Of a stretch of DNA of 64,000 bases, positions 5,955 to 8,413 are shown one piece after another; position 1 is the stretch's first letter; every line of letters starts with the position of its first letter. The notes under the pieces are model-generated. The model was not told the origin of the DNA, searched no databases, and was given only the letters and a program-made list of their open reading frames with translations. The stretch covers positions 1,411 through 65,410 of the forward strand of contig JBKHIY010000002.1 in assembly GCA_046538415.1 (NCBI GenBank), given 5' to 3'. Both the position numbers and the translations under genes were made by a program. The stretch comes from Candidatus Brocadiia bacterium (lineage in GTDB: Bacteria; Planctomycetota; PUPC01; DSUN01).

Positions 5955-8276
5955 TCACCGGCCGGCCCGGCGCGCGGCGCGCAGCGCATCCTCGAGGCCG
6001 AATTGGCGCACGATCTTCAGGAGGGTGTGCTCCGAGGTCCTGTCCCAGTGCTTGGCGATCTCGCGGAGGTTCCCGTGGTGGTGCTCGATGAGGGCCGCGA
6101 GGTACTCGCGGCGCGCGTGGTCGACGTGGCCGGGCCACGCGAAGGTAGGCGTGTCGGGCGAAGGACTGGGGCTGGCCAACGCGCGCCGCAACGCGGGGCG
6201 GTCGACCACGCTCCCGGCTTCGCGTTGGGGCCGCTCCCGCGATGGCGCCGCGGGACTCGCTCTTCGCACGGCCTCCGGCAGGTCCTGGGGGCGCACCTCG
6301 GCTCCGTCGGTGAGGGCCACGGCGCGGCGCAGGGCATTCTCCAGTTCGCGGATGTTGCCCGGCCAATCGTAGAGGCCGAGTGCGGTCCGCGCGTCGTCCG
6401 TGAGGAGGGTCTCCTGCTTCCCTGCCTCGCGGCGGACCTTCTCGAAAAGCCGTTGGACGAGCGCGGGGCTGTCCTCGCGCCTGTCCCGCAATGGGGGCAG
6501 GAGGATCTGGATGACGTTGAGGCGGTAGTAGAGGTCCTCGCGGAACGCCCCCTGGCGCATCATTTCCGCCAGGTCGCGGTTCGTGGCCGCGATGATGCGG
6601 ACGTCCACGCGGGTCTCCTGCACGCCCCCGAGCCTCTTGAAGCTCTTCTTCTCGATCACGCGCAGGAGCTTGGCCTGGAGCTCGGGCGACGCGTCGCCGA
6701 TCTCGTCGAGGAAGATGGTGCCGCCGTGGGCGAGCGCGAAGAGACCCTGCTTGTCCTCGTCGGCTCCCGTGAACGCGCCCCGCACGTGGCCGAAGAGGTT
6801 CGATTGGATGAGGCTCTCGCTGCCCACGTCGGAGGTGAGGCCCACTTCGACGAACGGGCCTTCGCGGCGCGGGCCGATCTCGTGGATCACGCGGGCATAG
6901 TAGCTCTTGCCGGTTCCCGACTCGCCGCACAGCATCACCGTTTCCTCGCAGGCCGCCGCTTTGCGGATTCGTTCCCAGGCCCCCTTCATTGCTTCGCTGA
7001 CGTGCAGGCCTGCTTCGGCGGGCGCCGGGCGCTCCGCGGTCCCCTCCCGCTCGCGCAGCCTGCGCACGTAGTCGAGCAGAATGTCGGTGATATTCTCGTA
7101 GTGGAACCGGTTGTGCGGCTTCAGGGTGAGACGGAACCTGCCCGACAGCCCGCGCTGCTCGGCCACGAACTGCTCGGGGCCAAAGCCCTGGATCGTGCGC
7201 TCCGGGAGCGTCCGCAATGCCCCTCGGAAGACGCGGAAGCTGTCGGCGAATGCCGCCTGGGGGTCGTGTCTGCTCCGTTCCAGATAGCCGATCATCTCCT
7301 CCTCGGAGCGGTAGACGAGCGCCATCTGGACGTGCGTCTCGCGGGGGCCAGGCTCGAACGCCAGCTCGTAGATCTCGCCGCACGTTCCGGCTACGAACTG
7401 GCTTACGAGGCAGCGGATCTGGTCGGGCAGCGCCCCCGAAGGAACCAGCGTGGTGTGCAGAAGATCCGGCATATGGTGTTCCAGAAGCATCCCCGCAAGC
7501 TGCTGGCCCACGGCCTCGGCGACGTTCTCTCCGCAGGTCTGCTGGGCGAAGTCGTACAAGTCCTGGAGCACTGAGTAGAAGATGAACTTCCCGCCGGCGC
7601 GGATCCGCCTCAGGTAATCGTCCTCGCCCCGCCCACGCCACTGAACGAACGCCTCCCAGACGGCATCCTCGTCGGGGAATCGCGGGCAGCGATGCCGGAC
7701 GACTGCCAGAACAGCTTCGGCGACTCGGAAGCTCTCCCTGTGGTCGAAATGCCGCGTCCGCTCTGGTGCCGCGGTTAGCTCGGCCAGGCGGCGCTCGACG
7801 TCGCGGGCCAGCTCCCCAGGGTACTGGTGTCGCTGGTCGGGCTCCTTGGCCATCATCTTCTCGGCCAGAGCCGCCACGGGGGCTGGAATCGACGGGTCGG
7901 CCGCAAGAGCTGGCGGCACAGGTTCGTGCAGGTGCTTGTAGAGGAGCGCCACGGCCGTTCCCGCCTCGAAGGGCGGCCTGCCAATGAGCATTTCGTACAG
8001 CGTGGCGCCCAGGGAGTAGATGTCCGAGCGGATGTCCGCCCTCTCTCCTCGGCACTGCTCGGGGCTCATGTAGGCGGCGGTTCCCAGCACCACCTTGATG
8101 GCCACATGGCGCTGGAGACTGTGCTGCTTCGCCTTGTAGACGGCGGCCATGGCCCCCTGGCCGATGCGCTCGAAGATCCGGCAGCCACCGAGCTCGGCGC
8201 CGAGCAGCAGATCCCCCCAGGCCCACGGGTTGGCGCTGGGGGCTTGAGCCGGGCCTGCGAGCCGCACCTGGGGCAT
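5955..8276 (-). CDS. Sigma54-dependent transcriptional activator with an N-terminal catalytically gutted Hanks-kinase remnant and an unassigned sensor region
   Basis: Kinase subdomains I-II 'IGQGAMAAVYKAKQHSLQRHVAIKVV' join directly to VIII-XI 'LGTAAYMSPEQ...DIYSLGATLYEMLIGRPPF', with no HRD or DFG. A middle region of about 300 aa is unassigned. AAA+ motifs 'GESGTGKS', 'GAFTGA', 'GGTIFLDEIG' and 'ATNRDL' are present. C-terminal HTH 'GNLREIAKHWDRTSEHTLLKIVRQFGL'. The start shown is the first in-frame ATG (8276), which lacks a Shine-Dalgarno sequence; see the 8213-8413 feature. Confidence 0.75.
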   Translation of the reverse strand: MPQVRLAGPAQAPSANPWAWGDLLLGAELGGCRIFERIGQGAMAAVYKAKQHSLQRHVAIKVVLGTAAYMSPEQCRGERADIRSDIYSLGATLYEMLIGRPPFEAGTAVALLYKHLHEPVPPALAADPSIPAPVAALAEKMMAKEPDQRHQYPGELARDVERRLAELTAAPERTRHFDHRESFRVAEAVLAVVRHRCPRFPDEDAVWEAFVQWRGRGEDDYLRRIRAGGKFIFYSVLQDLYDFAQQTCGENVAEAVGQQLAGMLLEHHMPDLLHTTLVPSGALPDQIRCLVSQFVAGTCGEIYELAFEPGPRETHVQMALVYRSEEEMIGYLERSRHDPQAAFADSFRVFRGALRTLPERTIQGFGPEQFVAEQRGLSGRFRLTLKPHNRFHYENITDILLDYVRRLREREGTAERPAPAEAGLHVSEAMKGAWERIRKAAACEETVMLCGESGTGKSYYARVIHEIGPRREGPFVEVGLTSDVGSESLIQSNLFGHVRGAFTGADEDKQGLFALAHGGTIFLDEIGDASPELQAKLLRVIEKKSFKRLGGVQETRVDVRIIAATNRDLAEMMRQGAFREDLYYRLNVIQILLPPLRDRREDSPALVQRLFEKVRREAGKQETLLTDDARTALGLYDWPGNIRELENALRRAVALTDGAEVRPQDLPEAVRRASPAAPSRERPQREAGSVVDRPALRRALASPSPSPDTPTFAWPGHVDHARREYLAALIEHHHGNLREIAKHWDRTSEHTLLKIVRQFGLEDALRAARRAGR

Positions 8277-8413
8277 GCCACCGAGGCGCCTTGCCAGTCG
8301 GGTGCGATCTGGATGGTGTGCCCGCAGTGCGGGCACGCCGCCTCGCGCGGGCCGAATCGTTCCGTCCTGTCGGTGTCGCCGGACCCTGGCCGACGCTCTC
8401 TGCCGTGTTTCAT
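8213..8413 (-). other. Out-of-frame N-terminal Zn-ribbon segment of the activator gene, with the frameshift at a G6 run
   Basis: ATG 8413 follows GGGAGGG and encodes 'CPHCGHTIQIAPDWQGASVACPRCG'. At the G6 run (C6 on the plus strand, 8213-8218) adding one G converts CCT GGG GGG ATC TGC into CCT GGG GGG GAT CTG CTG. This fuses the Zn ribbon in frame to '...DLLLGAELGGCRIFERIGQG...'. Confidence 0.65.

Follow-up and report, generated by a model that had tools for sequence, protein, structure and literature searches.

How should a bacterial activator gene be read when its first codons lie in one frame, its remaining domains in another, and the kinase domain that follows the frame change lacks its middle? 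The question is raised by a gene on the minus strand (8413-5955) of a 64-kb stretch of DNA (71% GC) from a Candidatus Brocadiia metagenome-assembled genome (MAG); this whole stretch will be called the window. In the NCBI annotation only the second of the two frames is called, from ATG 8276, as a 773-amino-acid "sigma 54-interacting transcriptional regulator" (MFP4055378.1). Judging by its relatives, the ancestral protein was probably one chain made of a zinc ribbon, an active Hanks Ser/Thr kinase, a sensor of ~250 amino acids, a sigma-54 AAA+ domain and a C-terminal DNA-binding region. We propose, with about an even chance of being right, that loss of the kinase module has been caught in progress at this locus, and that a truncated activator consisting of sensor, AAA+ domain and helix-turn-helix (HTH) is still made, which would sense its ligand without kinase input. 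The gene is made up of the following features (ORF, open reading frame).

8421-8427, minus strand: Shine-Dalgarno-like GGGAGGG, N7 ahead of ATG 8413, from reading of the sequence
8066-8413, minus strand: zinc-ribbon ORF of 115 codons, true protein only until the G6 run (~8213) and out of frame from there to TGA 8068-8066
8213-8218, minus strand: G6 run, the frameshift site, where one added G rejoins zinc ribbon and kinase
8088-8212, minus strand: kinase N-lobe stub, with G-loop GQGAMAAVY at 8162-8136 and VAIK at 8105-8094, from orthologue alignment
8082-8093, minus strand: deletion junction, codons V-V-L-G, where 130 codons (390 nt) of the orthologues are absent
7776-8087, minus strand: kinase C-lobe remnant, from P+1 loop GTAAYMSPEQ to alphaI, Pfam Pkinase positions 157-253
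7005-7772, minus strand: sensor domain (residues 215-470), predicted H-NOX/V4R-like fold from AlphaFold2 and Foldseek, no Pfam family
6240-6998, minus strand: sigma-54 AAA+ domain and lid, PF00158 at 206 bits and PF25601 at 78 bits
5958-6107, minus strand: conserved C-terminal region with a Fis-like helix-turn-helix pattern, GNLREIAKHWDRTSEHTLLKIVRQFGL, at 6074-5994; stop codon at 5957-5955

A kinase without its catalytic core

The Pfam Pkinase match was confined to the C-lobe part of the 263-position profile, plus a small N-terminal piece, and the NCBIfam PknB model covered only positions 168-286 in the window protein versus 10-279 in the homologue P0002. When the protein was aligned with seven kinase-bearing orthologues, 130 columns were missing between VAIKV and GTxxYMSPE; in the related loci L082, L083 and L084 the motifs flanking this segment are spaced by 396-399 nt. 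The lost segment comprises alphaC, the hinge, alphaD-alphaE, the catalytic loop HRDIKPSN, DFG and the activation loop. Subdomains I-II (GQGAMAAVY, VAIK) and VIII (GTAAYMSPEQ) are retained, as remnants only. A complete catalytic core (alphaC Glu, HRD, DFG) was not found in the window protein, whereas the orthologues carry EARLAA, HRDIKPSN and DFG at the corresponding places. The original prediction, made from the window sequence, had described a kinase jumping from subdomain II to VIII without catalytic loop and DFG, and had contrasted it with an intact kinase at 51851-53131. Pfam and the alignment agree with the former description, and the comparison kinase gave a complete Pkinase match.

These alignments show that the remnant is incapable of phosphorylation and, judging from kinase structure, it is unlikely to keep the kinase fold. 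The N-lobe stub keeps 16 of the 17 orthologue-invariant positions, and the P+1-loop proline beside the deletion junction is altered. The gap itself represents a deletion and not a conserved alternative domain, because orthologues (P0002, P0006 and the syntenic L082) carry an in-frame zinc ribbon together with a complete, motif-intact kinase. An alignment of this kind had been proposed along with the original prediction, and so had the opposite outcome, in which the "deletion" would turn out to be a conserved domain unrelated to kinases; no such domain was seen, as the orthologues have a full kinase. The label "pseudokinase" used earlier is therefore a misnomer for a region that is a deletion remnant. 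Microhomology at the junction, in the form of CTG/GTG-type repeats of 3-6 nt, is plausible, although it was deduced from orthologue sequences and not from a direct ancestor.

Kinase-bearing and kinase-less relatives

Apart from the window's own product, the best match among 5.8 billion proteins searched was a relative at 64% identity. The family as a whole is small and accounts for 34 clusters (50% identity) out of 1.84 billion representatives. In seven homologues of 788-954 amino acids, a complete kinase precedes a middle domain, AAA+ domain and C-terminus like those of the window protein. The other 25 among the 32 nearest homologues are kinase-less; they are ~600 amino acids long, consist of middle domain, AAA+ domain and C-terminus only, and the space upstream of these short forms is too small to hold a kinase. 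As for the long forms, P0002 and P0006 start with MxxGxxP...CPxC(15-17 aa)CPxC and read on in frame into the kinase, and the orthologue kinases contain VALK, the alphaC Glu (EARLAA), HRDIKPSN, DFG and GTPxYMSPE, by which they look catalytically competent. P0125, a distant member whose middle domain is 30% identical, likewise combines Pkinase, the middle domain and Sigma54, which implies that the kinase fusion is old within the family. An N-terminal kinase is an unusual, yet conserved trait of this small group.

The neighbouring genes of related loci were identified by Pfam scans. An upstream FGGY sugar-kinase gene is common to three loci, namely the window, L082 and L001. In L082, the order is FGGY, activator, GcpE (on the opposite strand) and further on FHA/AAA_22, as in the window, and the activator gene encodes an in-frame zinc ribbon with a full kinase. 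In L001, the zinc ribbon is fused in frame straight to the middle domain without any kinase, and this locus is the nearest relative (sister) of the window in a neighbour-joining tree. Within a small family of sigma-54 activators from Planctomycetota, we regard the window gene as the orthologue linked to the FGGY kinase, in a state that falls between L082 (full kinase) and L001 (no kinase). Because most of the nearest homologues (25/32) are kinase-less and L001 joins the zinc ribbon to the sensor, the kinase appears to be dispensable.

Two generic searches yielded little on the family. NCBIfam contained no family-specific model and returned only generic AAA+ or kinase models, all below cut-off; a scan of genome contigs with the family alignment, which responded to generic AAA+ motifs, found only unrelated sigma-54 activators and no orthologues. 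Two further observations concern the family's N-termini. The public gene calls P0009 (L001) and P0004 (L082) begin too late, with in-frame CPxC...CPxC lying upstream of them (L001 5400-5700, L082 7800-8000). The search of representatives also returned P0148 (522 amino acids), in which a kinase domain is followed first by a short stretch that matches the initial ~50 residues of the sensor and then by a radical-SAM domain; in this odd architecture, the same N-terminal elements are linked to a radical-SAM enzyme.

The frameshift between zinc ribbon and kinase

The product of the zinc-ribbon ORF reads MKHGRERRPG...CPHCG...CPRCGSQARLKPPAPTRGPGG and contains a CPHCG + CPRCG pair, whose two CxxC are encoded at 8335-8321 and 8275-8261. 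Its zinc-ribbon Pfam matches are weak; its N-terminus aligns without gaps to the in-frame zinc ribbons of P0002, P0006, L082 and L001. The kinase and AAA+ domain lie in a distinct frame, open from 8696 to 5955, which reads ...GDLLLGAELGGCRIFERIGQGAMAAVYKAKQHSLQRHVAIKVVLGTAAYMSPEQ... and then continues for ~700 residues. One G added at the G6 run gives a continuous 819-amino-acid protein reading ...TRGPGGDLLLGAELGGCRIFERIGQG..., and this restored protein aligns to P0002 and P0006 with no gap through ...GDLLLGAELGGCRI. The bias in GC content at third codon positions (GC3) passes from the zinc-ribbon frame to the kinase frame at ~8250-8205, with coding bias in both stretches. The ancestral sequence of the site was probably CCT GGG GGG GAT (P-G-G-D), of which one G has been lost (G7 to G6). 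At the equivalent position, homopolymer runs in the orthologues are of 5 nt or less.

All this agrees with the original prediction, which had placed a CxxC...CxxC ORF behind GGGAGGG-N7-ATG 8413 in another frame, had fused the two frames by one G in the G6 run and had pointed out that ATG 8276 has no Shine-Dalgarno sequence. The latter start codon indeed has no Shine-Dalgarno-like sequence and overlaps the codons of the second CxxC in the other frame; the missing Shine-Dalgarno is nonetheless a weak argument, because several good genes of the window also lack one. A second internal start candidate, ATG 8069, corresponds to the Met of YMSPEQ and overlaps the out-of-frame stop as ATGA. Such an overlap is a classic arrangement for termination-reinitiation; here it is probably a coincidence.

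Output half and sensor domain

By sequence criteria, the window protein would be a bacterial enhancer-binding protein. Its Sigma54_activat (PF00158) match stands far above the cut-off of 20.2 bits and spans residues 473-637 of the fused protein, with AAA_lid_14 (PF25601) as the lid. Walker A (GESGTGKS) is encoded at 6926-6903, GAFTGA at 6779-6762 and Walker B (IFLDEIG) at 6716-6696. The C-terminal 50 amino acids are conserved in the family with a Fis-like pattern, 22 of the 23 invariant positions being kept, and Pfam HTH_8 gave no match (E <= 0.1). The output half had been called intact in the original prediction, and the domain, lid, Walker A/B and GAFTGA matches bear this out; the C-terminus is conserved though HTH_8 is silent.

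The region between the kinase remnant and the AAA+ domain had been left there as an "unassigned 300-aa domain". An AlphaFold2 model of it, built with 32 homologues, reached a predicted local distance difference test score (pLDDT) of 87.9 and a predicted template modelling score (pTM) of 0.85. When the model was compared with the PDB by Foldseek, the best matches were H-NOX domains (3tf8_B, E = 9e-4, probability 1.0, target-normalised template modelling score 0.62), followed at lower rank by the phenol-sensing domains of PoxR, DmpR and MopR and then by Bet3. The alignments with H-NOX cover ~220 columns at a sequence identity of 10-15%. None of 13 family members matched Pfam HNOB, V4R or XylR_N at E <= 10, and the profile of these 13 members gave only chance-level matches against PDB sequences; the identification therefore rests on the fold, because the sequence-level searches gave nothing. 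The folds of V4R, TRAPPC3 and H-NOX are reported to be related (PMC10933270). From the model we are confident that the sensor has an H-NOX/V4R-like fold without being a sequence member of those families. His100 (domain numbering, in an HxPD motif), Tyr135 and Tyr154 are invariant in the family, and the invariant His in HxPD with several invariant Tyr/Trp may be regarded as candidate ligand-site residues.

Since the middle domain models as an H-NOX/V4R-like fold, the C-terminal 600 amino acids have the ordinary layout of a sensor, AAA+ and DNA-binding activator. The earlier statement that the gene has a non-standard layout thus holds for the N-terminal kinase fusion, which is unusual, but not for the sensor-AAA+-HTH part, which is of the standard XylR/DmpR type.

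Promoter, upstream sites and probable target gene

Three features lie downstream of the activator.

5905-5946, minus strand: two upstream-activator-like sites, CCAATTCCTGC at 5946-5936 and CTCAAAAGCTGC at 5916-5905, directly past the stop codon
5772-5786, minus strand: sigma-54 promoter-like element TGGCACGGTTTTCGC, with -24 GG and -12 GC kept, 169 nt after the stop codon
4956-5762, minus strand: lipoprotein-like ORF, the probable target, with likely start GTG 5687, a signal peptide and lipobox ...LALVLSVVASGC

From this arrangement, the activator most likely controls the gene directly downstream. In the related loci L083, L084, L085 and L087, a perfect TGGCACG-N4-TTGC is located 162-169 nt past the activator stop codon, and the homologous, palindrome-like upstream sites in the same four loci are GCA(G/A)TT(T/C)CTGC and CAA(A/C)A(A/G)(C/T)TGC. 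It is the position of the promoter element which is informative, because ~3.5 chance matches are expected per 64 kb. Compared with these loci, the cis-elements of the window look slightly worn. The lipoprotein ORF has no Pfam match; its homologue in L083 is the gene at 7732-8424, which closes a sigma-54-driven operon. In that operon, the promoter is followed by a 59-amino-acid membrane peptide, two small ORFs and then the lipoprotein homologue.

In relatives, the first gene past the activator's sigma-54 promoter encodes a hydrophobic peptide of 59-68 amino acids (MSKSGTEVLVAVLALAAF...; L083 6663-8424, L084 9689-9931, L086 7012-7218). Radical-SAM/B12-binding and acyltransferase/AMP-binding genes recur near related loci, and the small peptide gene is not present in the window.

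Age of the lesions and a model of kinase loss

The N-lobe stub is 66.5% and the C-lobe remnant 59.5% identical to the orthologues, versus 71.1% and 59.3%, respectively, among the orthologues themselves. At otherwise invariant positions, the kinase remnant carries 4/52 private changes (0-6 in intact kinases), and the sensor-AAA+-C-terminal part 1/106 (0-7 in 32 relatives). As there is no excess divergence, either both lesions are recent on the divergence scale of the family, or the frameshift is not real.

We suggest the following model. The ancestral activator would have acted on a sigma-54 promoter ~165 nt past its own stop codon. A 390-nt in-frame deletion has destroyed the kinase module, and the loss of one base (G7 to G6), probably real with an assembly error as a possibility, would have uncoupled the zinc ribbon. 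The sensor-AAA+-HTH part could be translated from an internal start, either ATG 8276 or ATG 8069, and the truncated product may work like the natural kinase-less members, that is as a ligand-sensing activator of the downstream lipoprotein gene. A "decaying kinase-activator fusion" was among the explanations originally put forward, and it is well supported by the orthologues with in-frame zinc ribbon and complete kinase.

Several points weigh against this model. The frameshift could be an assembly error: scans of metagenome contigs for exact DNA, either with G6 or G7 at the site or with a nearby 24-mer, gave 0 matches and hence no other copy. The low divergence would fit a very recently dead gene equally well and is no proof that the C-terminal part is still used, and expression from an internal start is something that we purely infer. 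The long open frames are not evidence either, because alternative frames are also open over 500-800 codons at 71% GC. The kinase comes out as ancestral in a neighbour-joining tree that was built without bootstrapping and whose internal branches are short. As for the downstream region, the first upstream site of the window has a G-to-C change in one half-site (CCA for GCA), and its -12 element is TCGC where the four comparators have an invariant TTGC. Finally, the small post-promoter ORFs of L083 and L084 are missing in the window, which hints that the whole module is decaying.

Alternative explanations

The alternative that survives best, also raised in the original prediction, takes the frameshift for a homopolymer sequencing or assembly error, so that the real gene would have G7 and encode an 819-amino-acid protein from ATG 8413, its kinase still dead by a real deletion. 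We consider this unlikely but worth serious attention. Homopolymer indels are the commonest consensus errors, the product restored by one G aligns perfectly to the orthologues, and an in-frame deletion combined with ongoing expression would account for a remnant that has not decayed. Moreover, the sequence comes from one MAG contig only, and a second copy was not found in public data. On the other hand, a crude screen of ~290 homopolymer sites in the 64 kb revealed no other convincing frameshift, and, with another, independent lesion present in this module, a genuine inactivating mutation is plausible; an error at G6 does not account for the 390-nt deletion. The screen looked for switches of the GC3 frame at homopolymers and recovered the known case only via a neighbouring C5 run. 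It argues against an error-riddled assembly and says little on a single site.

The worn half-site and -12 element, which depart from invariants of the four comparators, and the absence of the downstream small ORFs of L083/L084 would also be expected if activator, promoter and target were together a dead, recently pseudogenised remnant of a regulon producing no functional protein. This is rather improbable in our opinion. It gains from the two lesions in the coding region, from non-conservative changes (G-to-R in the sensor, D-to-H before Walker B) and from a decayed FGGY 3' fragment beside the block, a trace of past rearrangement. However, the count of private changes in the sensor-AAA+-HTH part (1/106) is inside the family range, the promoter retains GG and GC, its critical bases, and lies at the conserved distance from the stop codon, and the natural kinase-less members show that the sensor-AAA+-HTH part works alone. 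The same AAA+ D-to-H change was read from the translation of an intact FHA-GAF activator elsewhere in the window.

It is highly improbable that the G6 run is a regulatory device, i.e. a phase-variable tract or a site of programmed -1 ribosomal or transcriptional slippage by which either a peptide with only the zinc ribbon or the fused activator would be made. The exact fused product would result from a -1 shift at CCU GGG GGG A, and there is a small GC hairpin 7 nt downstream of G6. Yet a G6 tract is short and common (57 G6/C6 runs in the window, plus 8 longer ones), the orthologues are in frame without a tract at this site, and U GGG GGG departs from the canonical zero-frame heptamer, X XXY YYZ. 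The downstream 106-nt RNA folds worse than shuffled controls (z = +1.55), and the kinase that would be switched on has already been destroyed. With a common G6, an unconserved tract and unstructured downstream RNA, the slippage-controlled or phase-variable regulator of the original prediction finds no support. Equally hard to credit is a conserved, functional pseudokinase or docking domain in the shortened region: the remnant is conserved as well as the intact kinases, but the shortened form is unique in databases, every kinase-bearing relative has the full 130-residue core, and the deletion takes the fold-essential core helices alphaC and alphaE and comes with a changed P+1-loop proline at the junction.

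We return to a kinase module that looks as if caught during its loss. One extension of this reading we put forward only tentatively, as doubtful: that the FGGY-linked lineage shows a recurrent, possibly selected removal of a kinase gate (full in L082, gutted in the window, excised in L001), with the window copy being a working intermediate on the way from phosphorylation-gated to ligand-only control, and with the intact relatives representing an undescribed class of one-component regulators, in which zinc ribbon, Hanks Ser/Thr kinase and H-NOX-like ligand sensor are joined in cis to a sigma-54 AAA+ activator.

Other observations in the window

The activator lies in a block bracketed by a 152-nt direct repeat with 93% identity (4791-4942 and 8472-8623, in minus-strand genes). 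What is repeated is the 3' end (~52 codons) of the FGGY kinase gene (10138-8459), copied as an orphan fragment past the lipoprotein stop codon, and the two copies enclose 3.68 kb containing activator, sigma-54 promoter and lipoprotein. Its homology ends at the stop codon, and ~7 of the ~11 differences are non-synonymous, from which we conclude that the orphan fragment is decaying. In the syntenic L082, both the lipoprotein gene and the FGGY fragment are absent. The bracketed block may have arisen by insertion through a single crossover, or may be what is left of a tandem duplication after partial deletion.

Besides sites around 58840-58935 and 56878, the homopolymer screen flagged a G9 run (50735-50743). 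Every other homopolymer of the window is shorter than this plus-strand run, which reads as C9 on the minus strand, where the coding sequence lies. The run was rejected as a frameshift: it encodes PPP, the prolines of ...DDLPPPPIALVVPAAG..., on the other strand at the N-terminus of an IspD-like gene whose frame looks intact and which starts right after a PIN/TRAM-like gene. As a slippage hot spot, it is likelier than the G6 run. The flag at 58.8 kb was rejected as well, being a normal junction between methylase and sulfatase genes. The remaining flag (56875-56878, minus strand) is a G4 run near the start of a HIT-family-like ORF (56857-56300) and may be an ordinary gene boundary.

Comparison with known systems

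The C-terminal 600 amino acids resemble XylR, DmpR, PoxR and MopR in consisting of a sensor with the H-NOX/V4R/Bet3 fold, a GAFTGA-containing AAA+ domain and a DNA-binding region. Unlike XylR and DmpR, they show no sequence match to V4R, XylR_N or HNOB, the best structural matches are H-NOX and not V4R, and the ancestral form of the family carries an N-terminal zinc ribbon and Hanks kinase. Haem sensors of the H-NOX type (Nostoc, Thermoanaerobacter, soluble guanylate cyclase beta1) are the closest folds to the modelled sensor; they differ from it in that the sensor is only 10-15% identical and has no HNOB Pfam match. We know of no H-NOX domain that serves as a direct N-terminal module of a sigma-54 activator. 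Nor did searches of an incomplete literature library turn up any description of a sigma-54 activator that has a Hanks kinase in cis or carries an H-NOX-like sensor.

In Myxococcus xanthus, Ser/Thr kinases control FHA-domain sigma-54 activators in trans. The family described here similarly couples Hanks kinase signalling to sigma-54 AAA+ activators; it differs in that the kinase is fused in cis, without FHA, and is destroyed in the window copy. The window also encodes an FHA-GAF-Sigma54_activat-HTH_8 activator (55039-53156, minus strand) directly followed by an intact Hanks-type kinase (53131-51851, minus strand). These two are a probable in-trans pair, which mirrors the in-cis fusion.

Genes in early decay, ordinary pseudogenes among them, typically carry in-frame internal deletions and single-base indels within G runs, and the window gene shows both types of damage. 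We take this damage for routine decay, part of which could instead be an assembly error, and the gene should be annotated as disrupted. The architecture of the intact family is modestly novel. The locus exposes a family which appears to be undescribed in the literature searched, with an H-NOX-like sensor and, in several branches, an in-cis eukaryotic-type kinase and zinc ribbon; its members share a well-defined autoregion of upstream sites and a sigma-54 promoter ~165 nt past the stop codon. Unlike in ordinary decay, only the N-terminal regulatory module is damaged, and the relatives L082 (intact) and L001 (clean loss) complete a three-step series. The three kinase states at one syntenic locus provide a comparison for what a fused Ser/Thr kinase adds to sigma-54 activation.

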